A stretch of 62,192 bases of DNA from Flavobacteriales bacterium (GTDB taxonomy: Bacteria > Bacteroidota > Bacteroidia > Flavobacteriales_D > Sanyastnellaceae). Location: NCBI GenBank assembly GCA_016777435.1, contig JADHRK010000001.1, positions 1 through 62,192 on the forward strand, given 5' to 3'. The notes under the pieces are model-generated. The model worked only from the letters and a program-made list of their open reading frames with translations, made no database searches and was not told the DNA's origin. Shown here piece after piece: positions 9,356 to 53,510 of this stretch (positions are counted from its first letter, which is position 1; each line of letters begins with the position of its first letter). The position numbers and the translations under genes were made by a program.

Positions 9356-9363
9356 TAAATTTG
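9356..9363 (+). promoter_or_regulatory. Bacteroidota-type -7 promoter box (TAnnTTTG)
   Basis: TAAATTTG lies 31 nt upstream of the ATG at 9394. Confidence 0.35.
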
Positions 9364-9393
9364 ACTTGAATAAGAAACTCTAAAACTGCTGGA

Positions 9394-10869: not shown

Positions 10870-10903
10870 TTCAAAAAACTCTACGAAGGATTCATTCCTT
10901 TTG

Positions 10904-10938
10904 AAATCCGCATCACCTTCGAGGTGATGCGGATTTTT
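10904..10938 (+). terminator. Rho-independent terminator
   Basis: A perfect 14-bp stem, AAATCCGCATCACC / GGTGATGCGGATTT, with a 5-nt loop (TTCGA). It runs into a T tract and begins 35 nt after the stop of 9394..10869. Confidence 0.7.
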
Positions 10939-10990
10939 CATTAAAAATGGTGCATCTTCACCTTCTAGAAATCGCCTAATCCCTCTGATC

Positions 10991-12445
10991 ATGAAACTGA
11001 ACAGTCTACTTTTATCGATAGCCTTCATCTTTACCTTAGTGCAAACGGGTTACGCTCAATTGCCTGATGGTTCCGTCGCCCCTGATTTTACGATCACCGA
11101 CATTGAAGGAGAAGAGCACACCTTGTACAGTTACCTGGACTCTGGCTATTCCGTAATCATTGACTTTTCAGCCACATGGTGCGGACCATGCTGGAATTAC
11201 CACACAAGCGGTGTCTTCGAGGATCTTTATGAAGCATATGGCCCCGATGGATCGAACGAACTGCGCATTCTCTTCATTGAGTCGGATGACAATACCACGG
11301 ATGACGACCTTCACGGAATTGGGACCAATACTTGGGGAGACTGGACAGCTGGTGTCAATTATCCCATCGCGGACAACGGAGGAGCTGTCTTCAATGCCTA
11401 CGAGTGCGCCTTCTACCCGACCATCATGACGGTTTGCCCAAATCGCTTGCTCAAGCAAACGGGCCAAGCCTCATTTGACGCTCACGCCGCCTACGTCCAA
11501 TCCATTGAATGCGCTCCAGCTTCATTGCCACAAGACGTTGGACTCATTGACTACGTAGGTTCGGTGCGAACTTGTCCTGAAACCCCAATTGAACTTGGGG
11601 TAAAGCTCATCAACAACGGCACAGAACCCTTAACTTCCTGTACGCTCGAAGCAACGACCTTGTTCGGAACAGAACTTCTGACCTACGAATGGTCCGGTTA
11701 CTTAGACACCTATGAAATGGAGACGGTAAGCATTGGAGAGGCCATCTTCCCAACAACTTCCATGTTCAGCATTGAAGTCACTTCGGAAGATGGCTACGAA
11801 GGCAACAACAGTGTCTCTGCCACTATGAACCTGAGCCAGGAAACTGCGACTTCTTTGGTGCGTGTTCAAATCACCACAGACAACATGCCAGGCGATAATC
11901 GATGGTCCATTACGGATCTCAACGGGGATGAGATCGCAGGCATTGATTTCGGCGACATGGCTGACAGCAACACCGACTACAATTGGTGGATCAATCTTGA
12001 ATCTTTGGGATGCTTTTCCTTCAATTTGTTTGACCTCACAGGAAACGGTGGGGACCTCAGCTGCTCGTTCTCCACCTACAATGAAGGCGGCTTTGAAACC
12101 AATAATATCTTCACCCTTAATAACAGCGGAAACTGGAACCAACTGGACAAAGGGTTCTCTATCAATGAGGTGAACATGAATGTCGACAGCGACTTTGGCG
12201 CGGCACAATTCGCCCTTTTCCCCAACCCATTGAACGATGAAAACACCTTGCAATTGGCGGGGCTCACAGGCAATGAAACCCAAATAGACTTGCACAGCAG
12301 CACCGGAGCATTGATCCAATCATGGGCTCAACCCAACCACCGAGGAACGCTTTCTTTGCCTATTGGTGCAATCGAATCTGGCCTCTACATCATTTCAGTG
12401 CATGGAGCACATGGCGTAATGTCTCAGCGTTTTATCAAATCATGA
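10991..12445 (+). CDS. Thioredoxin-fold (WCGPC) protein with a T9SS C-terminal sorting domain; paralog of 9394..10869
   Basis: QLPDGSVAPDFTITDIEGEEHTLY...IIDFSATWCGPCWNYH is collinear with the upstream paralog over its whole length. The C-terminus is LFPNPLNDENTLQL...SGLYIISVHGAHGVMSQRFIKS. Confidence 0.75.
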   Translation: MKLNSLLLSIAFIFTLVQTGYAQLPDGSVAPDFTITDIEGEEHTLYSYLDSGYSVIIDFSATWCGPCWNYHTSGVFEDLYEAYGPDGSNELRILFIESDDNTTDDDLHGIGTNTWGDWTAGVNYPIADNGGAVFNAYECAFYPTIMTVCPNRLLKQTGQASFDAHAAYVQSIECAPASLPQDVGLIDYVGSVRTCPETPIELGVKLINNGTEPLTSCTLEATTLFGTELLTYEWSGYLDTYEMETVSIGEAIFPTTSMFSIEVTSEDGYEGNNSVSATMNLSQETATSLVRVQITTDNMPGDNRWSITDLNGDEIAGIDFGDMADSNTDYNWWINLESLGCFSFNLFDLTGNGGDLSCSFSTYNEGGFETNNIFTLNNSGNWNQLDKGFSINEVNMNVDSDFGAAQFALFPNPLNDENTLQLAGLTGNETQIDLHSSTGALIQSWAQPNHRGTLSLPIGAIESGLYIISVHGAHGVMSQRFIKS

Positions 12446-19113: not shown

Positions 19114-20358
19114 ATGAGCCCAACCGAACGCACCCCAAACCAAGCCGGAAATCTCCCGGATTTTGAAAATACGGAACAGGCATTTGCACACCTGAATTCA
19201 AGGCAATTGAAAAAGGCGCTCGTGCTCTTCAGGACGGTCGGAAATCCTACTTTGGTCAAGCTGGGCAAATTGCTCATGAATCTTGCTTTGGTACTTCGTA
19301 TTCCTGTTGCCTGGGCCATTCGCCCCACGGTCTACAGCCATTTTTGCGGGGGCGAATCCATTGCGGGGTGCGAATCCACTATTTCCAGTTTGGCCAGCAG
19401 CGATGTAAAAACCATTCTTGACTACAGCGCTGAAGGAAAAGATTCTGAGGCCGAATGGGACCGAACGCACGCGGAAATCATGCGAGCCATTCAGGCAACG
19501 GAGGGCGACGATCGGCATGCATTTTCGGTCTTTAAAGTGAGCGGTCTTGCATCCACCCGCTTGCTGGAGAAGGTCGGGGCTACCTTGCAGCCACTGGCGA
19601 AGATTGAGTCTGTAATTACGGGCTTGAGCCATCATGAAAAAGAGGCTTGGAAACGTGTTCAAGCGCGTTTCTATGGACTTTGCGAACATTCCGCCCGTGT
19701 AGGGAAACCTGTCTTTATCGATGCAGAAGAGAGCTGGATCCAGCCGACCATAGATGCAATGGCTGAATCGGCTATGCGCAGGTGGAATGGTGAAGAGACC
19801 ATCGTGTACAACACCGTACAGTTGTACCGGACCGACCGGCTGGACTACCTGAAAAAATTGATCGAAACAGCGAAGGCTGAAGGATTCAAGGTAGGAGTCA
19901 AGCTCGTAAGGGGCGCCTACATGGAAAAGGAAAGGGAAAGAGCCTTGTCACGCGGCTATCCTTCTCCCATCCAACGGGATAAAGATGCAACCGACCGTGA
20001 TTTCGATGCGGCGCTGGAGTGGTGCGTAGCGCACCTTGATCATGTTTCTCTCTGCGCGGGCAGTCACAATGAAAACAGCAACGCGCTATTGTGCAGGAAC
20101 ATGGATAAACTGGGGATCGCTCGCAACGACAAGCGCGTTTGGTTCGCCCAATTGCTAGGCATGAGCGATCCCGTCAGCTTCAATCTGGCCTGTGCCAATT
20201 ACCAAGTTGCGAAGTATGTTCCTTATGGCCCCATCGCAGAGACCATTCCTTACCTCATCCGACGGGCAGAGGAAAACACCTCAGTGGCCGGACAAACTTC
20301 CCGAGAACTGGAACTGATTCGAAGGGAAAAGGATCGAAGGAATCGAAAGAACCATTAG
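19114..20358 (+). CDS. Proline dehydrogenase (stand-alone PRODH)
   Basis: DFENTEQAFAHLNSRQLKKALVLF..., VQLYRTDRLDYL, KLVRGAYMEKERERA, AGSHNENS, FAQLLGMSD. Confidence 0.85.
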   Translation: MSPTERTPNQAGNLPDFENTEQAFAHLNSRQLKKALVLFRTVGNPTLVKLGKLLMNLALVLRIPVAWAIRPTVYSHFCGGESIAGCESTISSLASSDVKTILDYSAEGKDSEAEWDRTHAEIMRAIQATEGDDRHAFSVFKVSGLASTRLLEKVGATLQPLAKIESVITGLSHHEKEAWKRVQARFYGLCEHSARVGKPVFIDAEESWIQPTIDAMAESAMRRWNGEETIVYNTVQLYRTDRLDYLKKLIETAKAEGFKVGVKLVRGAYMEKERERALSRGYPSPIQRDKDATDRDFDAALEWCVAHLDHVSLCAGSHNENSNALLCRNMDKLGIARNDKRVWFAQLLGMSDPVSFNLACANYQVAKYVPYGPIAETIPYLIRRAEENTSVAGQTSRELELIRREKDRRNRKNH

Positions 20359-22634
20359 AAGGTAAACCGCAACCCCGTTCTCAACAAACGGGGCATTCCA
20401 GCTCGAATCCCAGCAGGGCGGCGCGCCACCACGAATGCTGAATCAAAGACGTTGTTCATGCCCAGATGCCACTGCACGTTTGAGCGCAATTCGCACCGAA
20501 CCACGGCATCCAAAATGATGGACTCATCAGTCGCTTCCTGGGGGTTGATTGATCCTTGGCCTGCCGAAGTTCGCATGGCGGCAACATAACGGGTATTTGT
20601 TTCCAGAGACCACTTCTCATTTTGCATGGCAACTTGCACGCTCAGTTGATGCGGCGACAAGTACGGCATGTAATCGCCATCCACTACAACATCCCATGGG
20701 CCATAGTCACTCTCAAAAGCAGAAGTGAATTGAGCATTTGTGTAAGTGTATGACAATCGTATCGGCATGGCCCATTTGGAATCCGCTGGAAACGCATTGC
20801 ACGCTGCTTCGATCTCAAACCCCTGTGTTCGAGCACTGCCACCATTGAATAAGTCACCTGAACCCAACCCCCCTGTTGCGGCCAAATCTGCTCCCAATAA
20901 ATTTTGATAGATGTTGTTGAATATCACAGCCTGGCCCGACAACAACCCTCCGTCAAATCGAAAACCCAATTCAGCATTGATGCTTGTCTCAGCGGTTGTT
21001 TCATCATTCGAACCTGGAGGAATGAAGCCTCTATGCACTCCGCTGAAGATGTGTGCATATTCAGAGACGGCAAAATTCAAACCCAATCCCGGGAGCCACA
21101 CGATCAGTGGATTGGTGCGCTCAGAAGGCGTTGAACCGATACGATTCAAGTCAGAAGAACCCCAATCGGTTCGACCCATTTCAATATTTTCCATCCTCAA
21201 GCCCGGAGTCCATGTGAATTTTCCAGTGCGAATGGTCCCTCGTACAAATGAGGCCAGTGCTTGGGCACGATCGATGCGATTGCCCGCCGTGCCGGGTGTA
21301 CCAGCATCTGTGAGCTGCATCTCCCCGTCCACCAGCTGATACCCATCGCGCCATTCGAAACGATCCCCATAGTCCTCATGCCAACGGACACCATAAACCA
21401 ACTGACCCAATTCACCAGGCAACTGAATGGATCCACGGTGCTGAATTCCTTTCGCCTCATAAGCGCGATTGTTCGCTTTCATCTGAAGCAAAAATCCGTC
21501 TGGAGTATCTTCTTGCAATAGATTCTGACTCATGCCATCGATGAGGCTTTGCAGTGAAATTGACTGCCCCAATGAATCCTTCGCGCGATCGAGTTTGTAC
21601 CAGTTTCGCTCAAAATTCGTTTGGTAGATGTCCGTTTTCACCGACCAATTTTTCGTGACCTGCCATTCATGCGTAAGTACGGCTTGTGATTGTGCTGATT
21701 TCATCAAATCATTGGCACTGGCGTTGTACCGCTTGAAGGGGTCCGCATTGAAGTCCTCCTCCGATAGTCCCGCATAGGTCTCATTGCTCGATTCCTCTGT
21801 CTCGCTCCACTTGAATTGGATGCTTTGGGGACTTCGCGCCGATTCCTTTGATTTCCAACGCATTTTGAACATCCGGTCTGACTTGTCAAACCCTGTTGAG
21901 CCCCCGTTGGGTAGGGATTTGAATCCATCACTGCCCAAACGCATTCCTTCTGCCATTATGCCCCATGATCCATGCTTCGAATCCCATTTTTGAGTGACTC
22001 GACCATGCTCAAGAAATCCTCCAAAACCACTGGCCTCGTATCGAACCATTCCACCTGACACAATATCGTCAAAACCAGCCGTTACCAAATTGATGGCGCC
22101 ACCTGCCGTTTGCGGGCCAAATGCGATCTGGCTGCTTCCTTTGAGCACCTCTATCGACTGCATTCTGGCGATGCTTGGAAAGAAATAAGCGGCTGGAGCC
22201 GAATAGGCTGCTGGAGCCATGAGAATGCCATCTTCCATAATGGTGATGCGCGCGCTGCGCTCCGTTCCTGATCCACGCATTCCGATGTTCGGTCGCAGAC
22301 CATAGCCGTCCTCCTCTTGGATATTCACTCCACTCACGGTCCGCAAGACACGGAGCGGATCGGTGTACGAATACCGCTCCAACTCTTCTTGGCCAATGAC
22401 ATGCAATGCACCCGGCACTTCATCTACTCCTTTCGCTCCTGCGGCCAATCCAATGGTCTGAACAGAGGCCTCTGGCAAAGAATGCCATTGTTGGATCATC
22501 AAATTCAAGGAGTCGTTTTCCATCTGATTCCCAAGGCTCATTTGTGCAATAGAAAGGCTAGAGATTGAGCCAATTAAGACCATCACAGAAGCAGTCTGCA
22601 GAGCAAAAGATAAGCAAGGGTTATGTCGTGTCAT
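20355..22634 (-). CDS. TonB-dependent receptor, FecA/siderophore-receptor-like
   Basis: The internal ATG at 22634 gives a signal peptide ...LSIAQ. Plug motifs are VSGVNIQEEDGYGLRPNIGMRGSG...ITIMEDGILMAP. A long beta-barrel ends ...LRTGLRFTF. Confidence 0.85.
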   Translation of the reverse strand: MTRHNPCLSFALQTASVMVLIGSISSLSIAQMSLGNQMENDSLNLMIQQWHSLPEASVQTIGLAAGAKGVDEVPGALHVIGQEELERYSYTDPLRVLRTVSGVNIQEEDGYGLRPNIGMRGSGTERSARITIMEDGILMAPAAYSAPAAYFFPSIARMQSIEVLKGSSQIAFGPQTAGGAINLVTAGFDDIVSGGMVRYEASGFGGFLEHGRVTQKWDSKHGSWGIMAEGMRLGSDGFKSLPNGGSTGFDKSDRMFKMRWKSKESARSPQSIQFKWSETEESSNETYAGLSEEDFNADPFKRYNASANDLMKSAQSQAVLTHEWQVTKNWSVKTDIYQTNFERNWYKLDRAKDSLGQSISLQSLIDGMSQNLLQEDTPDGFLLQMKANNRAYEAKGIQHRGSIQLPGELGQLVYGVRWHEDYGDRFEWRDGYQLVDGEMQLTDAGTPGTAGNRIDRAQALASFVRGTIRTGKFTWTPGLRMENIEMGRTDWGSSDLNRIGSTPSERTNPLIVWLPGLGLNFAVSEYAHIFSGVHRGFIPPGSNDETTAETSINAELGFRFDGGLLSGQAVIFNNIYQNLLGADLAATGGLGSGDLFNGGSARTQGFEIEAACNAFPADSKWAMPIRLSYTYTNAQFTSAFESDYGPWDVVVDGDYMPYLSPHQLSVQVAMQNEKWSLETNTRYVAAMRTSAGQGSINPQEATDESIILDAVVRCELRSNVQWHLGMNNVFDSAFVVARRPAGIRAGMPRLLRTGLRFTF

Positions 22635-22686
22635 GGGGCAAAATTGGCGCCGAATTCGAAAACTCACAATCACCCAAAAAAGGTAA

Positions 22687-22703
22687 TTTAGAATCATTCT
22701 AAA
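22687..22703. promoter_or_regulatory. Perfect 8-1-8 palindrome, a candidate operator (Fur-box-like)
   Basis: TTTAGAATCATTCTAAA lies between the cytochrome stop (22726) and the receptor ATG (22634), 53-69 nt upstream of the latter. Confidence 0.3.
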
Positions 22704-22725
22704 CAAGAATGGCTCCAGAAGCAAC

Positions 22726-24708
22726 CTATAATTTCACCCAACGAACCGCTTTCCAACCACCACCAACAAGCTGAATACGAGCGAAGTAAACTCCTGCCGC
22801 CAAATCAGAAATGCGGTGACCGCTCATCGCTTCATTGACCGATGCCTCCCGAAGAACTCGCCCATTCGCATCGGTTAACCAAACGGCCGTGGCCGCTTCG
22901 CCAACGGGAGGAATCAGACGAATGAGTTGGCCCTCAGCCACGGGGTTGGGTGCCACGCGCCATTGTTCAGATTCGCCATCATATCCCATCCATCCCAAAA
23001 CGGTCGTAGACTTCATCAGTACAGGCGTCCGATCCGACGCATTGAACATGGATTCAAACGTTGCAATGGCTTCTGACTGATCCGAATATTCAAACATTCC
23101 ACTCACCCACCTTGCTGGCACGGCGATATATTGCAAGCGAACATGTGCCTGAACAGATGTCGCACCCGAGGCATCGGCAATCCGATAGACCAACCGATCG
23201 GTTCCTGACCCCTCTTCTCCAACGGATCCATCGGCATTGCGGTAGTGGTTGAAATCCACATCCAATTCAGCCATTGGACCAAATCGAACCGTGTCATAGG
23301 CCAGATGATTGGAATAAAATCCACGGGGTGCCACCCGGTTGTCTTTGAGCAAGACCGATGCGCGCTCAAGAAGTTGCGTTGGCGTCCCGGAAACATCGCC
23401 AAACACCGTTTCATATACTTGAACTTGTTCTTCAGAGGAAATCTCATTCCAATGCGGCTCATAGTCCTCGTCCCGCCCAAATACGCCTTCCTCAGGCGAC
23501 CATTTGCCGCTGTGAAACAACGTATCCCCTGAAGAAGATGAAACCAATACAAATTCCAAAAACGCCATGCGCGAAGGGTATCCGCTTGGGAATTTATGCC
23601 CTGCTGCATTTTCAATCTCCACTTCAAACAACCATTCTCCAGCTTGGGATGGGAGTTGCCATGCGTTTAGGTGAGCCGTTTCATTTTGCAACGAGCGTTC
23701 GGTTCGGGCAATGGTGGAATCAAATTGTGCCGGGCTCGCACTTAGTTCCAGTGTGACCGCATTGTCCCGCATCAATTTCAGCATGAATGCATTGCCTCCG
23801 ACCAAATGATGTTTTCCGAATCGTTGTGGAAACAGCCAATTCGGCTGGGTTGCTGCAATTGCCCCCCCTTCCACCAATGGCATGTGACACCCTTGGCATT
23901 GGACATTCTCGGCATTGAATGCAGAATTGACCCACTCGAGGTAAGTCGTTTGCTCGAAGTACACTTGACCCGTTTCTTCCCCACCTAAATCTTGCGTGTG
24001 GACGTAAAGGGAATGGCAACTTGCGCACACTTCGCTGTTGCGCATATGCTCTCCATATACGGGGATGAAGCCTGTCTGCCCGCTCATCAGCCCGTCCCAT
24101 GGGTTTTCAAAACCACCCCATGCTACATTCTCCGGATTGATCGGCAAATCCCCATTCGATCGGCCCGCCAAATTGATATCATCGATGGTATGGCACGCGG
24201 CACAACCCACTCCATCAAGTCCCAACGCGTCGTCTGCCAAATCCTCCATGGTATACCCATTCGGGCCTGCAGCCCCTGTCAAGTGCGCTTCGTGAAAACC
24301 TTGAGGTGCATGGCAAGCCGTGCACACATTTTCAATTGATTCTCGGTGATCGGGATTGACCAACCCCTCGTGTGCGACTTTCGCTTGCCAAAACGGATCA
24401 CGGGCGCTATTGGCCATCATGGTTGCCTGCCAATCCGTCACCGGACTCACCGTGTGGCCCGTTTCGTCCACCAATGCTTCTCCCTCCGGATCTGGCGCAT
24501 GGCAATTCACACAATTTCCGGATCCGGTGAAATAAACGCCTTCTTCAGTACACAATTCACCCATCCGCCAGCGCATCATTGCGGCATCATCGCCCTTGAA
24601 TTTCTGATCCGGATCTTCGGCAGCCGTCAAGAATACTCCTGCGCCAACAGAGATCAGAGGTAGAAAAAATGCAAAAAAAGTGGCGCGTTTCATCAAGAAT
24701 TGATTCAT
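22726..24708 (-). CDS. Pentahaem c-type cytochrome with a T9SS C-terminal sorting domain
   Basis: Five CxxCH motifs: CVNCH, CTACH, CAACH, CASCH, CQGCH. A haem-free domain of about 300 aa follows. The C-terminus WRVAPNPVAEGQLIRL...LAAGVYFARIQLVGGGWKAVRWVKL reads as a type-A T9SS CTD. The second ATG at 24693 (MKRATFFAFFLPLISVGAG) gives a more canonical signal peptide. Confidence 0.75.
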   Translation of the reverse strand: MNQFLMKRATFFAFFLPLISVGAGVFLTAAEDPDQKFKGDDAAMMRWRMGELCTEEGVYFTGSGNCVNCHAPDPEGEALVDETGHTVSPVTDWQATMMANSARDPFWQAKVAHEGLVNPDHRESIENVCTACHAPQGFHEAHLTGAAGPNGYTMEDLADDALGLDGVGCAACHTIDDINLAGRSNGDLPINPENVAWGGFENPWDGLMSGQTGFIPVYGEHMRNSEVCASCHSLYVHTQDLGGEETGQVYFEQTTYLEWVNSAFNAENVQCQGCHMPLVEGGAIAATQPNWLFPQRFGKHHLVGGNAFMLKLMRDNAVTLELSASPAQFDSTIARTERSLQNETAHLNAWQLPSQAGEWLFEVEIENAAGHKFPSGYPSRMAFLEFVLVSSSSGDTLFHSGKWSPEEGVFGRDEDYEPHWNEISSEEQVQVYETVFGDVSGTPTQLLERASVLLKDNRVAPRGFYSNHLAYDTVRFGPMAELDVDFNHYRNADGSVGEEGSGTDRLVYRIADASGATSVQAHVRLQYIAVPARWVSGMFEYSDQSEAIATFESMFNASDRTPVLMKSTTVLGWMGYDGESEQWRVAPNPVAEGQLIRLIPPVGEAATAVWLTDANGRVLREASVNEAMSGHRISDLAAGVYFARIQLVGGGWKAVRWVKL

Positions 24709-24734
24709 AAAATCTCCACAGCAAATGCTATGGG

Positions 24735-24742
24735 TATCTTTG
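24735..24742 (+). promoter_or_regulatory. Bacteroidota-type -7 promoter box for the PQQ dehydrogenase gene
   Basis: TATCTTTG lies 29 nt upstream of the ATG at 24771. Confidence 0.35.
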
Positions 24743-24745
24743 TGA

Positions 24746-24753
24746 CAAAGTTA
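24746..24753 (-). promoter_or_regulatory. Bacteroidota-type -7 promoter box for the cytochrome gene
   Basis: The plus strand reads CAAAGTTA, which is TAACTTTG on the minus strand. It lies 38 nt upstream of the ATG at 24708 and 53 nt upstream of the ATG at 24693. Confidence 0.3.
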
Positions 24754-24770
24754 GAGCCGAAACACCCCCC

Positions 24771-26342
24771 ATGCCATTCACACATGCCCCTCTTTTGAAT
24801 CGAAAGCCCTTCTATCTTGTTGGACTCTGCCTCAGTTGGTTTTTTTCGCTTCACGGCCAATCCGCCCCAGAAGCAATTGTCGGCGAACGATTGGTCGGCG
24901 CCGAATGGCCGGTTTCCGTTCGACCCGCCAGCCATGCGGAAGAGGAAGTCAACTTACTCATTGTCTGCCACAGCGGCTTGGTCATGTGGTTCGATGAATC
25001 CACGGGGGTCGTGCGAGAGGAACCATTCCTCGACCTCAGCTCCACGGGTTTGGACCTAGTGGATTACGGCATCATGAGTGAACAAGGACTGAATGACTTG
25101 ATCCTTGACCCCAACTTTGAGGAGAACGGGCTCTTCTACGTCATCTACAACGGCTACCGGCCGGATGGCACCGGAACCTTCATCGACGAAAGGCTCCTAT
25201 GCTTCGGGACGAATCCCGATCATACCCAAGCCGATCCCAACAATTGGTACGAAGTGCTTGAATTGGTGCAGCCTGCGCGAGGTCACAACGGTGGGCAACT
25301 GCATTTTGGCCCCCAAGATGGATACCTCTATATCAGTACCGGCGATGGAGGAGGCACGGGCACCGGAGAGACCGGCGGCGCGAGCGGAGGAGACGACCAC
25401 GGACCCATTGGAAACGGCCAGAACCTCGAAACACTTTTGGGGAAACTGCTTCGAATTCAAGTCAATGGATTAGCACCGTATAGCATTCCTGAAGACAACC
25501 CGTTCGTCTCCAACCCAGATGCTTTGGATGAGATCTGGGCGTACGGATTTCGCAATCCTTGGCGCTGGAGTTTCGACCGCTTGACCGGAGACAAATTCAT
25601 CGGTGACGTAGGAGAAGTCGATTGGGAAGAAGTCAGCATGGAGCGCGCAGACTCCGAAGGCGGCCTCAATTTTGGGTGGCGGCTCATGGAAGGCCCCATG
25701 TGTTACGAACCGCTCGAAGATTGCGACCCCGACGGCACCTTGGAACAGCCTGTATTTTCCTATCCGCACGAGAACGGATGGTGTTCCGTCATCGGAGGCT
25801 ATCGTTACCGAGGGCAAGACATTCCATCCCTCTACAGCAGCTATGTCTTCACCGATGCCTGTGGTTTTTACGATCATAAATTTTGGACCCTTTCTGAACA
25901 GGCCGATGGGAGTTGGGCCGGAGCACGACTCGACATCCAAGTGCCTGGGGGCTTTGTTCCTTGGGAGGAGACGCGGTTTGGTTTCGGCGAGAACAACCAA
26001 GGAGAATTGTACCTCTGCACCCAACAGTTTGTTTATCGCCTGAGCTACGACCCTGTTGATGCAACACAAACGCCAACCGTGAATGAGGCGCTACGCTTTT
26101 CACCAAACCCTGTGTCCATCGGTTCCGATGTGACACTTGACGTGGGCAGCGAAGGTATCTTAAGTCGCTTGCGAATCACCGACTCCAGTGGCAGGCTCGT
26201 GCACGATGTGAACCTCGAAACAGCGACTACGCCCTATGTCATGAACACCTCTGGGATGAAATCCGGGACGTACATCATTGAAGCTTGGGTCTTGAATGTA
26301 CCCCAACCCAGTCGTGGAAAACTTAGCGTTATTGGTCGCTAA
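24771..26342 (+). CDS. PQQ-dependent sugar (glucose/sorbosone) dehydrogenase-like beta-propeller with a T9SS C-terminal sorting domain
   Basis: SEQGLNDLILDPNFEENGLFYVIY, HNGGQLHFGPQDGYLYISTGDGG, WAYGFRNPWRWSFD. The C-terminus is LRFSPNPVSIGSDVTLDV...SGTYIIEAWV.... Confidence 0.8.
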   Translation: MPFTHAPLLNRKPFYLVGLCLSWFFSLHGQSAPEAIVGERLVGAEWPVSVRPASHAEEEVNLLIVCHSGLVMWFDESTGVVREEPFLDLSSTGLDLVDYGIMSEQGLNDLILDPNFEENGLFYVIYNGYRPDGTGTFIDERLLCFGTNPDHTQADPNNWYEVLELVQPARGHNGGQLHFGPQDGYLYISTGDGGGTGTGETGGASGGDDHGPIGNGQNLETLLGKLLRIQVNGLAPYSIPEDNPFVSNPDALDEIWAYGFRNPWRWSFDRLTGDKFIGDVGEVDWEEVSMERADSEGGLNFGWRLMEGPMCYEPLEDCDPDGTLEQPVFSYPHENGWCSVIGGYRYRGQDIPSLYSSYVFTDACGFYDHKFWTLSEQADGSWAGARLDIQVPGGFVPWEETRFGFGENNQGELYLCTQQFVYRLSYDPVDATQTPTVNEALRFSPNPVSIGSDVTLDVGSEGILSRLRITDSSGRLVHDVNLETATTPYVMNTSGMKSGTYIIEAWVLNVPQPSRGKLSVIGR

Positions 26343-26839
26343 CGCCCTGACATTGCTGGGCAATCGCACTCGGTCGCTGGCAATCCAGATCCGGAAGTGA
26401 GATTTACAACGCCACTTTTCGCACCAAAGCAAACTTCCAATTGCCGCAACGGGCAGCCAGGAGCCGTATCCAGAATGTAGCATGGCGGCTCTTGCCTTGG
26501 TCTGCTTTCCGACCAATTGATCTCAGCGTCCAACAGCCATTGCACCATGGTAGAATTGGATGCCTTGGCGGGGCCATCCGTACATTCCATCCAGCACGCC
26601 AGCGACTCAGACGGCAGGACACCATCCAACTGCATCCGGGATTTGATACGCTTTTCAGGGAGCCAGTCGTTGCAACCACGGCCCTGAAAAAAGAAGATGC
26701 TCAGCAACAGTCCTACGAAGACTCCGATGCCGTAGCGTAAAAAGCGTTGACGAAAATTCACGTTACAAAAGTAAAGCAAAGGACAGTGGTGTGCCCTCCC
26801 TTCGTAAATTCGGGATTCCATGATTGCTTGCAAAGACAT
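26339..26839 (-). CDS. Hypothetical Cys-rich membrane-anchored protein (start uncertain)
   Basis: One TM helix (YGIGVFVGLLLSIFFFQG) followed by a domain of about 110 aa with 7 Cys. The ATG at 26839 would overlap the divergent ABC gene by 20 nt. An in-frame GTG at 26761 (MNFRQRFLRYG...) is an alternative start. Confidence 0.4.
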   Translation of the reverse strand: MSLQAIMESRIYEGRAHHCPLLYFCNVNFRQRFLRYGIGVFVGLLLSIFFFQGRGCNDWLPEKRIKSRMQLDGVLPSESLACWMECTDGPAKASNSTMVQWLLDAEINWSESRPRQEPPCYILDTAPGCPLRQLEVCFGAKSGVVNLTSGSGLPATECDCPAMSGR

Positions 26840-27473
26840 TCAGTTCCAATACCATCCGGAATCCCCCGTGCTCTCGTTTCCGGATTTGGCTTGTTCCCGA
26901 GAAGGAAAGTTGCTTCTTTTGGGCAATTCCGGTTGTGGTAAGACAACTCTGCTGCATTTGATGTGTGGTTTGCTGCACCCGCAGCAGGGGGAAGTGGAAG
27001 TTCAAGGGCAAAAGATCAGCGCGCTGAACGGACCCGCATTGGACCGGTTTCGGGGCGAACAGTTTGGTATTGTTTTCCAGCAAAGTCATTTCATCCAAAG
27101 CTTGAGCGTGATGGAAAACCTCGCCATTCCTCATTTCTTATTGGGTGGAAAATTCCCAACATCGAAAGCGAAAGAGCTGCTTGGCAATTTGGGCATCGCC
27201 CACAAAGCCCATGCAAAACCTCGTGCCCTTAGTGTTGGAGAGCAGCAGCGGGCAAGCATTGCACGTGCCCTCATCCATCAACCGAGCATCGTACTGGCCG
27301 ATGAGCCTACAAGTGCCTTGGATGATGCTTCAACCGCTGCCGTGATTGGTCTATTGGAGGACCAATGCGCTGAAGCCGGCGCAGCACTCATTGTTGTGAC
27401 CCACGACCAGCGGCTCAAGACACGTTACTCCAATCGGGTTGAACTAAATCCGGGAACACCTCAAGCCTCATGA
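26820..27473 (+). CDS. ABC transporter ATP-binding protein (MacB/LolD/FtsE type)
   Basis: Walker A GNSGCGKTTLL, signature LSVGEQQRASIARAL, Walker B IVLADEPTSALD. Confidence 0.85.
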   Translation: MIACKDIQFQYHPESPVLSFPDLACSREGKLLLLGNSGCGKTTLLHLMCGLLHPQQGEVEVQGQKISALNGPALDRFRGEQFGIVFQQSHFIQSLSVMENLAIPHFLLGGKFPTSKAKELLGNLGIAHKAHAKPRALSVGEQQRASIARALIHQPSIVLADEPTSALDDASTAAVIGLLEDQCAEAGAALIVVTHDQRLKTRYSNRVELNPGTPQAS

Positions 27474-32770: not shown

Positions 32771-34528
32771 CTAGTGTACCTCTTCGCCAGACAGCGCAGG
32801 CGTGGTCTGAGGCACAAAATCAGCATCATGTACGGGGTTCGAATAATCATATGCCCAACGATGCACTTCAGGAAGCGGTCCGTCCCAGTTGCCGTGAACA
32901 TGGCGTACCGGTGTGGTCCATTCCAGTGTGTTGGACATCCATGGGTTTTGCACGGATTTTTGACCGTAGAAGATGCTGTAGAAGAAGTTGAAGAGGAAGA
33001 ACAGTTGTCCAATCGCTCCAACGATTGCAAAGGTCGATATGAGTGGCTGCAAGTCCATCACGCTGCCTAAGAAATCAAAATTACTGTACTCGTAGTAACG
33101 CCGTGGTGCTCCAGCAATCCCGACAAAATGCATTGGGAAAAACACGCCGTACCCGCATACGATGGTTACCCAAAAGTGAGCAAAACCCAACTTGGTATTC
33201 ATCATTCGCCCAAACATCTTTGGAAACCAGTGGTAAATCCCTGCGAGCATTCCAAAAATCGCAGACATCCCCATAACGATGTGGAAGTGGGCTACTACGA
33301 AGTACGTATCGTGGACATTTACGTCCAACGCTGAGTCTGCCAAAATAATCCCGGTCAAACCCCCTGTGACAAACGTGCTCACCAAACCAATGCTAAACAA
33401 CATGGCAGGCGTGAAACGAATGTTGCCTTGCCACAACGTTGTGATGTAGTTGAAGGCTTTCACAGCAGATGGAATCGCAATCAACAATGTGGTGAACACG
33501 AATACGGATCCCAAGAACGGATTCATTCCGGTCACGAACATGTGGTGACCCCAGACAATGAACGACAAGAATCCAATACCAAGAAGTGAACCAACCATGG
33601 CTTTGTAACCAAAGATCGGCTTGCGTGCGTTCGTGGCAATGACCTCGGAACTAATGCCCAATGCAGGCAACAGAACGATGTAAACTTCGGGGTGACCAAG
33701 GAACCAAAACAAGTGCTGATACAGGATGGGACTTCCACCCGTTACGTCCAATGCTTCACCACCAATGAAGATGTCTGAAAGGTAGAACGCTGTTCCCATC
33801 GTTCGGTCCATCAGCAGCAAAACCACGGCAGAGACCAGTACTGGAAAGCTCAAGACACCGAGAATCGCCGTGACCATAAACGCCCAAATGGTGAGCGGTA
33901 GACGTGTCATTGACATGCCTTTCGTCCGCAGATTGATGATCGTTACAACGTAATTCAACCCTCCAAGCAAAGAACTCACGACAAAAAGGACCATGGAGAT
34001 TAGCCACAAGGTCATTCCCATGCCCGACCCTGGCATCGCCTGGGGCAATGCAGACAAGGGAGGATATACCGTCCAGCCACCCGACGCGGCTCCACCCTCG
34101 GTGAACAAAGACAGAATCATGATAACACTCGAGAAGAAGAAGAACCAGTAGCTCAGCATATTCAAAAAACCGGAAGCCATGTCACGGGCGCCGATTTGAA
34201 GCGGAATAAGGAGGTTCGAAAAGGTCCCCGACAGCCCACCTGTCAAAACAAAGAAAACCATAATGGTTCCGTGGATGGTCACCAATGCCAGATAGGCGTT
34301 GCGATCCAGAACTCCCCCTGGCGCCCATTTGCCCAAGAAGGTTTCCAAGATGGCAAAACTTTCTCCCGGCCAGCCCAGCTGCAATCGGAAGAAAACCGAC
34401 AACATAACAGCTACGATTCCCATTACGATAGCCGTAACGAGGAATTGCTTGGAGATCATCTTGTGATCGTGTGAGAAAACGTATTTCGATACGAAACTCT
34501 CTTCGTGATGATGTGCTTGTGCGCCCAT
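32771..34528 (-). CDS. ctaD: Cytochrome c oxidase subunit I
   Basis: 12-TM haem-copper oxidase signature: WFFGHPEVY-like FWFLGHPEVYIVLLP, WGHHMFVTGM, VVAHFHIVMG. Confidence 0.95.
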   Translation of the reverse strand: MGAQAHHHEESFVSKYVFSHDHKMISKQFLVTAIVMGIVAVMLSVFFRLQLGWPGESFAILETFLGKWAPGGVLDRNAYLALVTIHGTIMVFFVLTGGLSGTFSNLLIPLQIGARDMASGFLNMLSYWFFFFSSVIMILSLFTEGGAASGGWTVYPPLSALPQAMPGSGMGMTLWLISMVLFVVSSLLGGLNYVVTIINLRTKGMSMTRLPLTIWAFMVTAILGVLSFPVLVSAVVLLLMDRTMGTAFYLSDIFIGGEALDVTGGSPILYQHLFWFLGHPEVYIVLLPALGISSEVIATNARKPIFGYKAMVGSLLGIGFLSFIVWGHHMFVTGMNPFLGSVFVFTTLLIAIPSAVKAFNYITTLWQGNIRFTPAMLFSIGLVSTFVTGGLTGIILADSALDVNVHDTYFVVAHFHIVMGMSAIFGMLAGIYHWFPKMFGRMMNTKLGFAHFWVTIVCGYGVFFPMHFVGIAGAPRRYYEYSNFDFLGSVMDLQPLISTFAIVGAIGQLFFLFNFFYSIFYGQKSVQNPWMSNTLEWTTPVRHVHGNWDGPLPEVHRWAYDYSNPVHDADFVPQTTPALSGEEVH

Positions 34529-34531
34529 GAT

Positions 34532-35953
34532 TTAGAGGGATGCAGTTATGGTTTGACTTTCTTTCTGTGCGGAGGCTTGCTCCATCTCTGGCTCCTCAGA
34601 ACCCTCCTTAACAATAAACTCACCTTGCTCCGAAAGCCAGGTGTCGTATGCTTCTTGCGATTCGATCACGATCTTCATTTGCATGTTGAAGTGCGCCGCA
34701 CCGCAAACTTTGTTGCAAAGCAACACGTAATCGAATTCGGGATTTTCCAGAACAGTGCGCATGGAATCCGTGGTAATCGTTGGTTTCATCTTGAACCGCG
34801 TAGGAACACCGGGTACCGTATTCATCTGAGCGCGGAACTGTGGCATATACGCGGAATGAATCACGTCGCGTGAACGGAAAACAAATTCAACTTCTCGCCC
34901 AACGGGCAAGTGAAACTCACCTTTTACAATTTGATCGTCCATTCCCGATTCCCAAGCCGTGAGCTCTCCATCAAAATCGAAGTTCCGAATTTCTTGAATC
35001 CGCTGTCTGTGGCGGATTAGACGGTACAACTTATCCTCTTTCGCCTCAAAGGCAGCCTCCGTTAAGATGTTGACTTTATCCGACTCAAGCATGTGCTCAA
35101 TTTCCGCCATCCGAGCTTCTAGCGCCTGTTTGCCATCGCCGTGATCGTCTGCATGGGCGTCGTGGCCATGGTCGTCATGTCCATGGTTATCGTGGCTGTG
35201 GTCGTCATGTCCATGATCGTCATTCAACTCTGCTTCTATCGCAGCCCACTCTGCAAGCAAATGGCCTTTTTCGTAATTGATTTCCTCTTCGACTTTGGCA
35301 ATTTTTTCCTCGATTTCTGTCAACGCAGCAGCTACCCCGTCTTCTGTCACAATCCCCAATGCGTTCATCGGAGTGATCAGGTTGTAGTTTGCTTGGCCAA
35401 ATTCACCATCCGCACCGGGATAGCGAGCGGTCCAATCGAATTGCTTGGAATAAAGCTCTACGCGCAACGCATCTTCGGAAGCCTCACCGGTCATTTCATT
35501 CCATGTTTGCAGTCCGTAGGCAATGATGATTGCCAAGACAACGGAAGGAATAACGGTCCAGATCAGTTCGAGTCGGTTGTCGTGCGCAATAAAACGCGCT
35601 TTGCGATCCGCACGGTGGTAGTACTTCGCAGAGAACCAAAATAGCAGGGTATTGACGATGAAGAATACCACAAAGATAATGGCCATGTTAAAGTCCATCA
35701 GCCGGTCGACTGCCACTCCGTGCTCAGAGGCAGGAGGAGTTCCATATGAACCATACTTCACCAGAAGTACCACAAATGAAACGTAAAACGCGACCATGAA
35801 GGCCAAGAACAGACCACCGTTCAACCGGTTGTCAGCTTCTGATATGTCCTCTTCCCGCTTTCCTCGCAGTGAGATGGAAAGCTGGTACACTTTGGACAAC
35901 TGCACTGCAGCTACCAAACCAAGGACAACAACGAGGAGAATGAGCAATTTCAT
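34532..35953 (-). CDS. ctaC: Cytochrome c oxidase subunit II with a long helical/His-rich insertion and no fused cytochrome c domain
   Basis: CuA cupredoxin motifs DVIHSAYMPQF and CNKVCGAAHFNM. An insertion of about 130 aa splits the domain and includes NDDHGHDDHSHDNHGHDDHGHDAHADDHGDG. The ATG at 35953 is preferred over the GTG at 35956. Confidence 0.85.
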   Translation of the reverse strand: MKLLILLVVVLGLVAAVQLSKVYQLSISLRGKREEDISEADNRLNGGLFLAFMVAFYVSFVVLLVKYGSYGTPPASEHGVAVDRLMDFNMAIIFVVFFIVNTLLFWFSAKYYHRADRKARFIAHDNRLELIWTVIPSVVLAIIIAYGLQTWNEMTGEASEDALRVELYSKQFDWTARYPGADGEFGQANYNLITPMNALGIVTEDGVAAALTEIEEKIAKVEEEINYEKGHLLAEWAAIEAELNDDHGHDDHSHDNHGHDDHGHDAHADDHGDGKQALEARMAEIEHMLESDKVNILTEAAFEAKEDKLYRLIRHRQRIQEIRNFDFDGELTAWESGMDDQIVKGEFHLPVGREVEFVFRSRDVIHSAYMPQFRAQMNTVPGVPTRFKMKPTITTDSMRTVLENPEFDYVLLCNKVCGAAHFNMQMKIVIESQEAYDTWLSEQGEFIVKEGSEEPEMEQASAQKESQTITASL

Positions 35954-35972
35954 CACTTAACGGGTCTTGCAA

Positions 35973-37232: not shown

Positions 37233-37234
37233 GA

Positions 37235-50939: not shown

Positions 50940-51002
50940 CTACGAGGCAATATCCCGAACTTTGAGGCGTAACGTTTGAGCCAAGAAGAGCTGAAAAACC
51001 CC

Positions 51003-53510
51003 ATGAACATGTGCCCATTGTATCGGAACATCACCTTGATCTGCATCGCAATCGCAATGCAAGGGAGCACATTGGTGTTCGGACAATTCTCCCCCTCGGT
51101 CGAGGCCGATGGCCAAGAAAATAGACAAACAGGGTCCTGGTCGGATTACTTTCCCTACCACCAAACACAAGAATTAGTCCATTGCCAAAGCGAATCGGAA
51201 GGAACCGCATTTTGGGCAGTGCGCACAGAGCAGGCCTTATTTCTTTACCACGAAAACGACAATAGTCTGCAGCGGCTCACCACCGTAGAAGGCATGAGCG
51301 AAAGCAATCCCACCGCGCTCGCTTGGGATGAGGACGGCGAAATTCTAATGGTCGGTTATGCCTCAGGAAAATTAGACTTGTTTTCCAATTCAGGCGACTG
51401 GCTGTATACGTTCAATGACATTCCACAGAGCAATCTCATCGGTGATAAGTCGATTCTTCAACTGATGTGGGGAGGGCCCAATGACCCTGACATGGTTTAT
51501 GCCGCTTGTGGTTTCGGGATTGTTGCGATGAACATCCGCTCGCTCGATGTCCGGGATACGTGGTACCTCGAAGGACAACAAAACCTCCGTCGATGCGCTG
51601 GAATTGCGGTACAGGATGCAGGAAATGCAGCCCCCATCTATGTTGTTTGGACCGATGCCGGTGTTTTTGAAGCGCCTACAAACCATCCATTTCTGAGTTC
51701 CCCAGAAGCCTGGACCCGGTGGAGTGACATTCCACTCGAGACCGCTTCGTATGCCGACGTGGCATTTGCACCGGACGGGGATGTCGTGGTCCACATGAAA
51801 ACCGGAGATGCTTCAAATCCAGACGAACTGTGGCTATTAAATGACGGTTTGTGGTCTGCTTTTCCAGGTTGGGAAAGCGGTGTTGTATTGGACCTCGAAA
51901 CAACCGAAATCAATGCGAGCAATCCCGACTGGCGGATTGCCATCGCTGACTTTCAATCCATTCGATTGTTCAATGCAAATTGGGAGCAAGTGCAATTGGA
52001 CTACGCAGCGGACGGGATTCCGCTCCGGGTGCGCGACATGGCGTTCAAAAACAAAATCACTGTGGTCGGAGACGAGACGATTGAAAGTTTTCAAGACTTG
52101 TTCATCGCAAACAATGAACAAGGCCTCTTGAAAATGGACATTACTGGCGAAGAACAAGACGACCACTGGGTGTTGGATGGACCGCCTGTGCCTTTGGTCC
52201 GGGACATTGACGCCTGGAATGACCGAGTGTGGATTGCCTCCGGAGGGATCGATGCCACTTGGACCAACATGTACCACAAGCACGGTTTTTATGGCTTTCA
52301 AGGCAATGACTGGCGTTGGATCAACCTCGGAGAAGGTGAAAACAATGTCAGCGGGATCAATGACCCGATGTGCGTTTCAATCGATCCATTGAATCCAAAT
52401 CATGCCTATTTCGGCACGTGGGAAGAAGGCCTCATCGAAGTGCTGGATGACGAGGTTGTCGCCATTTTCAACGCAGCCAACAGCCCACTGCAATCGGCTG
52501 ATTTTGGGGGGTCCCCTCGCATCGGTGTTGGCGGCGTGGACTTTGATGCGTTTGGCAACCTTTGGTTCACCAATGCTTATGCGGAAAACGGCCTGCACGT
52601 GCGTCTTAAAGACGGTACATTCGAGTCCATGGGTTTGGGGAATGCGCTGGGCAACGACGGTTGGCTCGGCCAAGTGCTCGTAGCGCGAAACGGCTATATC
52701 TGGTGCATCATGCCCCGGAACCAAGGCCTGCTCGTTTACGACACAAACAAAACGCCCGAAAACACCAACGATGACGATTGGCGCGTTTTAACTTCGGATG
52801 CAAACCAAGGAGGATTGCCTTCGGATGATGTTTATTCGATTGAAGAAGATTTGGATGGTGAAATTTGGGTCGGAACCGCTGCTGGACCCTGCGTGATTTA
52901 CTTGCCCAGTCTGGTGTTCGATACGAGCAATGAAAACCCTGTTGCCTCACAAATACTGATCCAGCAAGATGGCAATTTCCAATTGCTGCTTGAAACGGAA
53001 GTCATACAAAGCATTTGCATCGATGGTGGAAATCGAAAATGGCTCGGCACGCAAAATTCGGGGGTGTACCTACTCAGTTCCGACGGAACTTCTGAAGTTG
53101 CCCATTTCGAAACCGAAAACAGCCCCCTCCCGAGTGACCGGATTTTTGACATTGCCATCAATCATCGCAATGGCGAAGTTCTGATTGGAACCGACCGCGG
53201 AATGATGGGTTGGCGCAGCGATGCCAATAATTTCGTTGTTGAAATTGATCAATTGCGCGCATACCCCAATCCAGTGACCGCCGATTTCGAAGGATGGATC
53301 ACCATTGACGGGCTGGCTTACGAATCCACTGTTCACATCACAACATCCTCCGGGAGAGTGGTTGCCCAGCTGGAGTCTGAAGGCGGACGCGCAGTATGGG
53401 ATGGATTGGACTGGGGTGGACAACCTGTTGGATACGGGGTTTACCTGGTCTTTGCAACGGATGAAAAGGGTGACTCTGCCGGAACGACTAAGTTCGCCAT
53501 CATGCGCTGA
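51003..53510 (+). CDS. porZ: Double beta-propeller (two-component-regulator-propeller type) protein with a T9SS CTD; PorZ-like T9SS component
   Basis: Signal peptide MNMCPLYRNITLICIAIAMQGSTLVFGQ. The N-terminus is WSDYFPYHQTQ...VEGMSESNPTALAWDEDGEILMVGYASGKLDLF. Repeated propeller blades follow. The C-terminus is AYPNPVTADFEGWITIDGL...YGVYLVFATDEKGDSAGTTKFAIMR. Size and architecture match PorZ as I remember it. Confidence 0.55.
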   Translation: MNMCPLYRNITLICIAIAMQGSTLVFGQFSPSVEADGQENRQTGSWSDYFPYHQTQELVHCQSESEGTAFWAVRTEQALFLYHENDNSLQRLTTVEGMSESNPTALAWDEDGEILMVGYASGKLDLFSNSGDWLYTFNDIPQSNLIGDKSILQLMWGGPNDPDMVYAACGFGIVAMNIRSLDVRDTWYLEGQQNLRRCAGIAVQDAGNAAPIYVVWTDAGVFEAPTNHPFLSSPEAWTRWSDIPLETASYADVAFAPDGDVVVHMKTGDASNPDELWLLNDGLWSAFPGWESGVVLDLETTEINASNPDWRIAIADFQSIRLFNANWEQVQLDYAADGIPLRVRDMAFKNKITVVGDETIESFQDLFIANNEQGLLKMDITGEEQDDHWVLDGPPVPLVRDIDAWNDRVWIASGGIDATWTNMYHKHGFYGFQGNDWRWINLGEGENNVSGINDPMCVSIDPLNPNHAYFGTWEEGLIEVLDDEVVAIFNAANSPLQSADFGGSPRIGVGGVDFDAFGNLWFTNAYAENGLHVRLKDGTFESMGLGNALGNDGWLGQVLVARNGYIWCIMPRNQGLLVYDTNKTPENTNDDDWRVLTSDANQGGLPSDDVYSIEEDLDGEIWVGTAAGPCVIYLPSLVFDTSNENPVASQILIQQDGNFQLLLETEVIQSICIDGGNRKWLGTQNSGVYLLSSDGTSEVAHFETENSPLPSDRIFDIAINHRNGEVLIGTDRGMMGWRSDANNFVVEIDQLRAYPNPVTADFEGWITIDGLAYESTVHITTSSGRVVAQLESEGGRAVWDGLDWGGQPVGYGVYLVFATDEKGDSAGTTKFAIMR

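Follow-up and report, generated by a model that had tools for sequence, protein, structure and literature searches.

The type IX secretion system (T9SS) carries folded cargo across the outer membrane, and this cargo is usually regarded as consisting of hydrolases, adhesins and proteases. Extracellular multihaem cytochromes, for their part, are usually tied to anaerobic metal reducers that use the type II secretion system (T2SS) and porin-cytochrome conduits. Fungi fuse an extracellular AA12 dehydrogenase dependent on pyrroloquinoline quinone (PQQ) to a cytochrome b domain, as in the AA12-AA8 pyranose dehydrogenase (PDH) of Coprinopsis cinerea (PMC4133262), with cellobiose dehydrogenase (CDH) as the flavin-dependent example. 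In bacteria, six-bladed PQQ dehydrogenases have been reported beside periplasmic c-type cytochrome partners (cytochrome c4 / c551), including in Bacteroidota (bioRxiv 10.64898/2026.07.10.737718). A family of cytochromes with a pentahaem cap and an immunoglobulin-like (Ig-like) stem has been grouped and named PHC (PMC11976967), with cytochrome c552, ExtKL and GSU2801 among its members, and the marine protein 'PtdA' has the same layout (bioRxiv 10.1101/2023.11.21.568154). MccSep (ExtKL), a Geobacter selenoprotein, is a polysulfide reductase that acts at haem 2 and uses a distal Cys239 together with Sec325 from an Ig-like-domain loop (bioRxiv 10.1101/2025.11.18.688581). Here we examine a stretch of 62,192 nucleotides from a marine Flavobacteriales bacterium (GCA_016777435.1, contig JADHRK010000001.1, positions 1 to 62,192; hereafter the window), in which a T9SS-tagged pentahaem cytochrome gene lies divergently beside the gene of a putative PQQ dehydrogenase that also appears to carry a T9SS tag. 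Our reading, which we hold with a little more confidence than doubt, is that the two form a small extracellular electron-transfer pair, with the cytochrome accepting electrons from the dehydrogenase.

The gene linkage behind this reading was studied in 80 cytochrome loci with 10-kb flanks (1.38 Mb of flanking sequence), which were searched with the neighbouring genes of the window; all open reading frames (ORFs) were then clustered and the recurrent clusters annotated. The divergent cytochrome-dehydrogenase pair is kept in every one of the 11 related loci that include upstream sequence, down to a cytochrome identity of 44%, and a small Cys-rich membrane protein stands beside it in all 11. The pair is also intact in loci L011 and L012, although the other flanking genes differ there. 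An unrelated lineage offers a further example: in locus L046 a T9SS-tagged dehydrogenase of the same GSDH family, a T9SS-tagged FG-GAP/ASPIC protein and the cytochrome follow one another on one strand, and the GSDH protein (176 bits against PF07995) shares about 29% identity with the window dehydrogenase by alignment and 24% by tblastn. The cluster in L046 is independent of the window clade. Across the whole 1.38 Mb, all genuine GSDH genes lie no more than 2.2 kb from the cytochrome.

Protein fusions extend this linkage, with at least three architectures joining a GSDH domain to the cytochrome family. Proteins P0262, P0269 and P0270 (1189-1226 aa, with a signal peptide) combine two domains: a GSDH domain that shares 34-40% identity with the window dehydrogenase and retains the HNGG and G-x-RN motifs, and a PHC domain that shares 35-37% with the window cytochrome across some 520 aa and bears all five CxxCH motifs; the genes of P0262 and P0270 are surrounded by Por_Secre_tail proteins. 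P0189 (GSDH, F5/8-type-C and PHC) and P0184 (GSDH and PHC) draw on other GSDH subfamilies, so the fusion probably arose more than once. Among the 19 longest representatives scanned, from 150 listed in all, three have an N-terminal GSDH domain fused to a PHC domain. An earlier reading of this DNA, which we call the first-pass annotation, had proposed a chain from the dehydrogenase through the cytochrome to Fe(III); the 11 conserved pairs, L046 and the fusions support the pairing that it assumed, but nothing in our results links the cytochrome to Fe(III).

The cytochrome itself belongs to a known fold family, as a distant member that is enlarged and T9SS-tagged, and we are confident that this family is PHC. 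Its AlphaFold2 (AF2) model, built from 119 sequences (pLDDT 94.4, pTM 0.90), supersedes an earlier model from 16 sequences in which the haem domain was poor (pLDDT 58.8). In Foldseek searches the newer model had one meaningful match in the PDB, with E 1.4e-15 and a TM of 0.71 relative to the 385-aa target. This match, 5ZE8, is cytochrome c552 of Thermochromatium tepidum, a pentahaem protein 16% identical to the window protein. A family profile likewise found 5ZE8 (E 4.5e-4) and, weakly, MccSep (9WT8, E 0.023), with the GH..P.G loop included in the match; the cytochrome as a single-sequence query against the PDB gave no match, so that the profile and the structure model were needed. The haem-free region (aa 301-575) aligns with the Ig-like stems of both 5ZE8 and MccSep. 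With the ExtKL model NF040886 the cytochrome reached 27.1 bits, below the equivalog cutoff of 250, and 57 of the 71 homologues also match this model weakly.

At the level of sequence, the description given by the first-pass annotation holds: the three ORFs (receptor, cytochrome and dehydrogenase), their coordinates and the 91-bp and 62-bp gaps between them are correct, and the 660-aa cytochrome has five CxxCH motifs (starting at C66, C129, C169, C228 and C271; nt 23884-24513) followed by some 300 residues without a haem motif (276-580). A database twin, P0001, is 100% identical and begins at Met6, giving 655 aa. Since all five CxxCH motifs are invariant among 151 family representatives, they do not reflect chance, and their ten cysteines are the only ones conserved across the family. 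Six His or Met residues are conserved family-wide (M98, M208, H221, H300, H371 and H419), among which M98, M208, H221 and H300 lie in the pentahaem domain as candidate distal haem ligands; taken together, the six could suffice for five six-coordinate haems.

The family to which this protein belongs is large and all but unlabelled. More than 2129 homologues were found in a word-indexed database, where their labels read at most 'T9SS type A sorting domain-containing protein' or 'hypothetical'; related 50%-identity clusters number 7019 at E <= 1e-3 and 1064 at E <= 1e-30. Species-representative genomes contain 591 confirmed relatives, mostly in metagenome-assembled genomes (MAGs) of Flavobacteriales, Saprospiraceae, Lewinellaceae and Cryomorphaceae. 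Among the accessory domains of the family are dockerin, DUF642, Calx-beta, He_PIG and class-I cytochrome c, as is usual for proteins that lie outside the cell or transfer electrons; in members from outside Bacteroidota, the domains are dockerin, Calx-beta, He_PIG or F5/8-C, again of a kind typical for extracellular proteins. Loci L007 (7960-11869; 52% and 62% identical to the window protein) and L034 (7662-11815) each have two paralogues of the cytochrome in tandem. Our literature search found no description of a T9SS-delivered multihaem or c-type cytochrome.

Evidence for export comes from both ends of the two proteins. At the C-terminus of the cytochrome, the type-A T9SS C-terminal domain (CTD) proposed in the first-pass annotation passes TIGR04183 over residues 585-658 and stays below the Pfam cutoff (PF18962, 17.6 bits against 27); in the first AF2 model this tail resembled the solved T9SS CTDs 8glk_D (TM 0.71) and PorZ 5m11. 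The same TIGR04183 match is present in 66 of 71 sampled species homologues, which makes the tag a stable feature of the Bacteroidota branch. For the dehydrogenase, the proposed sorting domain stands in part: both curated scores fall just short (TIGR04183, 21.6 against 23; PF18962, 20.4 against 27), and we accept the tail as a CTD because its PNP...G...G pattern is kept in all relatives and because it is matched at E 1.3e-7 by a hidden Markov model (HMM) built only from cytochrome tails. Neither protein thus clearly fails the T9SS models. Both have hydrophobic N-termini, and from these sequence features we infer that cytochrome and dehydrogenase are T9SS cargo destined for the cell surface or the medium. 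The organism has a T9SS, as indicated by a PorZ-like gene and three further CTD-bearing ORFs in the window, and a respiratory block at 32771-44491(-), with caa3-type oxidase subunits I and II and an alternative-complex-III-like set (NrfD-like, Fe-S/molybdopterin-like and multihaem ActA-like), indicates that it is aerobic and that its c-type cytochrome maturation is active. Further surface-directed redox proteins of the same genome are encoded at 7607-12445(+), where a DUF6029 gene precedes tandem T9SS-tagged thioredoxin/AhpC-like proteins (9394-10869 and 10991-12445), and a 319-aa ORF at 6223-7182(-) has a C-terminus that matches the T9SS CTD HMM (E 3.9e-8).

Table 1. Positions in the window of the cytochrome, the dehydrogenase and the features around them.
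Feature	Coordinates	Strand	Basis or remark
TonB-dependent receptor, Plug and 22-strand barrel	20355..22634	-	siderophore/FecA-like by best match
Perfect 17-bp palindrome TTTAGAATGATTCTAAA, candidate operator, in the 91-bp gap upstream of the receptor	22687..22703	.	unique in the window
Pentahaem c-type cytochrome, PHC (c552/ExtKL-like) family, with T9SS type-A CTD	22726..24708	-	660 aa; translation
T9SS type-A CTD of the cytochrome, aa 585-660	22729..22956	-	TIGR04183, 31.2 bits against a cutoff of 23
Haem-free beta-sandwich (Ig-like) of the cytochrome, aa 301-575, with inserts and two helices	22984..23808	-	DSSP of the model
Second family-wide motif of the cytochrome, K455-D-N-R458	23335..23346	-	conservation in 151 representatives
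Signature loop of the cytochrome, G370-H-K-F-P-S-G-Y377-P-S-R380	23569..23601	-	alignment to the MccSep loop
Alpha-helical pentahaem domain of the cytochrome, aa 50-300	23809..24561	-	translation, conservation, AF2 model
Predicted N-terminal Sec signal peptide of the cytochrome, aa 1-28	24625..24708	-	hydrophobic helix 2-29 in the AF2 model
Divergent intergenic region of 62 bp between cytochrome and dehydrogenase	24709..24770	.	contains the 6-1-6 palindrome CTTTGTGACAAAG at 24738-24750
Putative PQQ dehydrogenase, six-bladed GSDH/sGDH-type (HHIP-like subfamily), with signal peptide and T9SS CTD	24771..26342	+	523 aa
T9SS CTD of the dehydrogenase, aa 438-523	26082..26339	+	sub-cutoff HMM scores, conserved motifs, local HMM
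Small Cys-rich single-helix membrane protein	26339..26839	-	no family match; convergent with the dehydrogenase, ORF ends overlap by 4 bp
PorZ-like T9SS component	50976..53510	+	PF21544, 59.1 bits; CTD-like tail

The other member of the pair was correctly recognised from the outset as a divergently transcribed beta-propeller of the soluble glucose dehydrogenase (sGDH) type, and it matches PF07995 at 94.9 bits (cutoff 25). Its relatives in the PDB are HHIP, which is the best match, 3A9G, 2G8S and 1C9U. The residues H172 (in HNGG) and R261-N262 (in GFRNP), which we take to be the equivalents of His144 and Arg228-Asn229 of sGDH, do not vary within the clade and also occur in the fused homologues, and HHIP is without the RN pair. 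No PQQ biosynthesis (pqq) genes lie within the window. The palindrome CTTTGTGACAAAG between the two divergent genes may be a candidate regulatory site shared by cytochrome and dehydrogenase; a scan of positions 20000-27000 for sigma-70 promoters and terminators gave results no better than shuffled sequence.

If the two proteins work together as we propose, the cytochrome would enter the periplasm through its Sec signal peptide, receive its five haems there and be exported in folded form by way of its T9SS CTD, as its tags suggest, and the dehydrogenase would likewise take up its cofactor in the periplasm before export. On the cell surface or in the medium, the cytochrome would then act as an electron-transfer module and not as an enzyme of the MccSep type. 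The dehydrogenase would oxidise an extracellular substrate, most likely an aldose or the reducing end of a sugar, and two electrons would pass from PQQH2 to the haem chain of the cytochrome, a transfer suggested by the gene linkage that we observe. The cytochrome, in turn, would reduce an external acceptor, for which a copper protein, O2, a metal oxide or a quinone are candidates. Hints as to this acceptor are given by a T9SS-tagged cupredoxin in one sub-clade, by a multicopper oxidase in locus L082 and by the FG-GAP/ASPIC propellers. The TonB-dependent receptor on the far side of the cytochrome would stand outside this unit, as an independently regulated insertion.

This leads us to the observations that weigh against such a pair. 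The cytochrome is without a GSDH neighbour in 67 of the 80 loci, so that the pairing is clade-specific and the cytochrome must have other partners elsewhere; within the window clade, the pairing sits inside a wider conserved synteny (ABC/FtsX, proline dehydrogenase) and amounts to roughly one evolutionary event; the two genes are divergent and form no operon; and GSDH fusions are rare in two families that each fuse promiscuously with other domains. The first two of these points would suit an adjacency without functional meaning, in which the cytochrome is a general surface redox protein with its real partners elsewhere, for example a T9SS-tagged FG-GAP/ASPIC propeller or the T9SS-tagged cupredoxin of other clades, and the dehydrogenase uses another acceptor. 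Such a view can also draw on the FG-GAP/ASPIC protein that adjoins the cytochrome in 18 loci of otherwise shuffled context, and on the cupredoxin found nearby in 11-13 loci of a single sub-clade. It does not, however, sit well with fusion proteins that are homologous to both window proteins, with the independent cluster of L046 or with a pair that stays together in L011 and L012 despite changed flanks, and we judge it decidedly unlikely. A different objection is that the cytochrome might be an enzyme, in which a haem near the GHK..P..R and KDNR loops would convert a small extracellular molecule (a sulfur, nitrogen or oxygen species), and the dehydrogenase would be an unrelated neighbour or one possible electron donor. 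The conserved polar loop (H371, K372, R380 and KDNR) at the position of the MccSep active site could indeed mark a catalytic site, on a fold and at a loop position held in common with MccSep. Among the 151 representatives, which come from several phyla, H371, K372, R380, K455, D456, N457 and R458 are nearly invariant, with G370, H371 and P374 unchanged throughout and K372 and R380 invariant bar one substitution or one gap; the contexts outside Bacteroidota are variable (multicopper oxidase/NosL/MerR, molybdenum-cofactor-related genes, RND efflux). On the other hand, the MccSep loop NHAGHSIPDG-U325-PT aligns with N367..G370-H-K-F-P-S-G-Y377-P of the window protein in such a way that the selenocysteine position is taken by Tyr377, and the distal Cys239 of haem 2 has no counterpart in the window cytochrome family. 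With both defining features of MccSep failing, its Se/S chemistry is not expected here, and it is the absence of the catalytic Sec and Cys that leads us to read the cytochrome as an electron carrier. Tyr377 was itself considered as a catalytic residue and rejected, the position being variable across the family (Y 78, F 46, I 22, H 4). Catalytic multihaem enzymes of the NrfA, HAO or OTR type were rejected as well: the family models fail (for NrfA, PF02335 gives 21.8 against 24.1), PDB E-values are no better than 0.078, and all five motifs are CxxCH, with no CxxCK or other known catalytic-haem signature. The conserved His and Met residues are numerous enough for five six-coordinate haems, and fusion to dehydrogenases, class-I cytochrome c and binding domains fits an electron-transfer module. 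We therefore consider an enzymatic role unlikely. The first-pass annotation had itself raised the prospect of a characterised periplasmic enzyme family; the cytochrome is not of the peroxidase, nitrite-reductase or hydroxylamine type, but it does fall in a family that had been named before, namely PHC.

The most ambitious proposal of that annotation was an iron module of all three genes, in which electrons from aldose oxidation reach extracellular Fe(III) through the cytochrome and a FecA-like receptor imports the iron. The genes are contiguous, multihaem cytochromes can reduce Fe(III), the best matches of the receptor are siderophore/FecA-type models, and a palindrome resembling a Fur box precedes the receptor gene. 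TonB-dependent receptors, however, take up Fe(III) chelates and not the Fe(II) that reduction would yield, and the trio is not conserved in relatives: the receptor is present in only three of the 12 related loci (L002-L004, where the cytochrome is 69-72% identical), in the other nine the gene after the cytochrome encodes proline dehydrogenase or is an unrelated one, and no receptor adjoins the cytochrome in the other 67 loci. The receptor, whose start we place at Met31 of a longer ORF (nt 22634), has the expected Plug and barrel and FecA as its best solved relative; this likeness extends to the plug only (E 8.6e-14), and the receptor fails both the FecA equivalog (NF041676, 67.3 against 1100 bits) and the siderophore subfamily model (TIGR01783, 122.3 against 223.5 bits), and no N-terminal signalling (STN-type) domain was detected by Pfam. 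Its sequence is best described as that of a generic TonB-dependent receptor of the Plug and barrel type. The core of the palindrome TTTAGAATGATTCTAAA has the same position in two of the other three receptor-bearing loci (L002, 11969-11981; L003, 7645-7657), and neither the window nor the loci contain a further copy; its 7-1-7 layout is one that we take to resemble a Fur box, which makes it a candidate metal-responsive operator. Given the presence in three of 12 loci and the conserved palindrome, we regard the receptor as a lineage-specific insertion that has an operator, and presumably a promoter, to itself, and not as a member of the module. That it belongs to the cytochrome and dehydrogenase system is very unlikely, the complete iron module is highly improbable, and Fe(III) reduction coupled to iron import by the window genes is unsupported. 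A role of the receptor in PQQ or lanthanide import, an idea prompted by the TonB-dependent transporters described in bioRxiv 10.64898/2026.07.10.737718, was also considered and rejected: its solved relatives (FecA, BtuB, PirA and PhuR) match in the plug only, and no substrate is assignable.

The extracellular pair of cytochrome and dehydrogenase that we favour is one of several arrangements around this cytochrome family. Clustering of the ORFs in the 80 loci yielded no universal operon partner; neighbours are clade-specific, and several of the recurrent ones are housekeeping genes kept by synteny (DciA, M3/M28 peptidases, DnaB, DUF2461 and Rce1-like). A T9SS-tagged beta-propeller with FG-GAP and ASPIC/UnbV domains (CRTAC1-like) directly adjoins the cytochrome in 18 loci of the Saprospiraceae/Lewinellaceae type (L019, L021, L028, L030, L035, L040, L046, L047, L050, L056, L058, L061, L063, L064, L066, L068, L073 and L078). 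This gene, at about 10001-11900, may lie on either side and on either strand within neighbourhoods that otherwise differ, and its recurrence suggests a second functional partner. In one Flavobacteriales sub-clade, a T9SS-tagged cupredoxin of about 210 aa (PF00127 and Por_Secre_tail) lies convergently near the cytochrome in 11-13 loci, at 0.1-1.5 kb downstream in L014, L023, L027, L042, L044, L051, L052, L054, L069, L077 and L080; it could be an extracellular electron acceptor or a mere case of conserved synteny.

More distant members of the family were seen in other settings. In a Thermodesulfobacteriota MAG (L082, 3153-7695), a multicopper oxidase (MCO) gene lies 8 bp upstream of an untagged family member, within a MerR-NosL-MCO-cytochrome-ABC-RND cluster that resembles copper homeostasis. 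Molybdenum-cofactor-related genes (Oxidored_molyb, MOSC, MoaA/MoaC) stand beside family members in several unrelated loci (L086, 8037-9089; L088, 2353-5802; L037, 2500-3297; and L062, cluster c90). No common theme emerged from the seven contexts of non-Bacteroidota members. Three loci from MAGs labelled Comamonadaceae or Gammaproteobacteria (L007, L010 and L017) are syntenic with Flavobacteriales loci (proline dehydrogenase, M20 peptidase, ABC/FtsX), and their labels look like binning or naming errors.

As for novelty, the PHC fold family, the dehydrogenase family and the pairing of a dehydrogenase with a cytochrome are already known. What appears to be new, as far as these sequences go, is the delivery of a multihaem cytochrome by the T9SS, the wide spread of such cytochromes among aerobic Bacteroidota and the fact that they are linked or fused to GSDH proteins. 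A T9SS-tagged pentahaem family present in dozens of sampled species, with linkage or fusion to PQQ sugar dehydrogenases in some lineages, suggests extracellular redox chemistry in abundant aerobic bacteria that degrade polysaccharides. If this is true, cofactor-loaded multihaem proteins would join the demonstrated cargo of the T9SS, a large protein family without a name would gain a function, and bacteria would possess an equivalent of the dehydrogenase-cytochrome systems by which fungi drive oxidative polysaccharide breakdown. Sanyastnella coralliicola, whose homologue P0088 has an identity of 44%, is a cultured carrier of the cytochrome family, in which the prediction could be tested directly. 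A bolder and more doubtful extension, which we put forward only tentatively, is that T9SS export of haem-loaded pentahaem cytochromes is routine in aerobic Bacteroidota of marine and fresh waters (Flavobacteriales, Saprospiraceae, Lewinellaceae), which would in this way build an extracellular chain from T9SS-exported dehydrogenases (GSDH, possibly FG-GAP/ASPIC) through the cytochrome to secreted copper proteins (cupredoxins, oxidases or proteins like lytic polysaccharide monooxygenases, LPMOs), metals or O2. Such a chain would correspond in bacteria to the CDH/PDH-LPMO redox system of fungi, and would be an extracellular electron-transfer route without a porin-cytochrome conduit.

Comparison with described systems shows what is shared and what sets this locus apart. 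Cytochrome c552 of T. tepidum, the founding structure of PHC, resembles the window cytochrome in that both place their five CxxCH motifs in a helical N-terminal domain ahead of an Ig-like beta-sandwich, and the two have the H..P.G..R loop in common; the window protein, however, exceeds c552 by 275 aa, having inserts in the sandwich, two additional helices and the T9SS CTD, and it is an export-tagged protein of an aerobic heterotroph, whereas c552 is periplasmic in an anoxygenic phototroph. MccSep/ExtKL of G. sulfurreducens (GSU2937-2936, 9WT8) shares the pentahaem cap, the Ig-like stem and an active-site loop that can be aligned, and differs by its Sec325 in place of Tyr377, its Cys239 and its periplasmic location. 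MtrC and OmcA of Shewanella are cell-surface multihaem c-type cytochromes as well, but they have ten haems in four domains, are exported by the T2SS and dock on a porin-cytochrome conduit; the window cytochrome has five haems and barely passes PF22113 (MtrC domains II/IV; 31.4 against 30 bits) through one haem pair, and membership of this decahaem family is ruled out by haem number, by TIGR03507 (17.3 against 209 bits) and by a TM of about 0.15.

For the pair as a whole, the closest parallel is that of the periplasmic PQQ dehydrogenases with cytochrome c4 / c551, which share the dehydrogenase superfamily and a neighbouring c-type cytochrome acceptor. There the acceptors are periplasmic class-I cytochromes with one or two haems, from which electrons enter the respiratory chain, whereas the partner here is a pentahaem PHC protein and both proteins are T9SS-tagged, so that electrons would end up beyond the outer membrane with no obvious way back. 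The window pair would thus be a variant of the same dehydrogenase-cytochrome logic, with a pentahaem partner and a place beyond the outer membrane. The fungal comparison drawn in the first-pass annotation is apt in its turn: in AA12-AA8 proteins and CDH an extracellular sugar dehydrogenase passes electrons to a dedicated cytochrome domain and from there to external partners, and the bacterial GSDH-PHC fusions (P0262, P0189 and P0184) mirror this fused layout. Nevertheless, the fungal cytochrome part is a single b-type haem domain (AA8) unrelated in sequence, and the window proteins are separate and apparently exported by the T9SS, so that the parallel is best taken as a functional analogy only.

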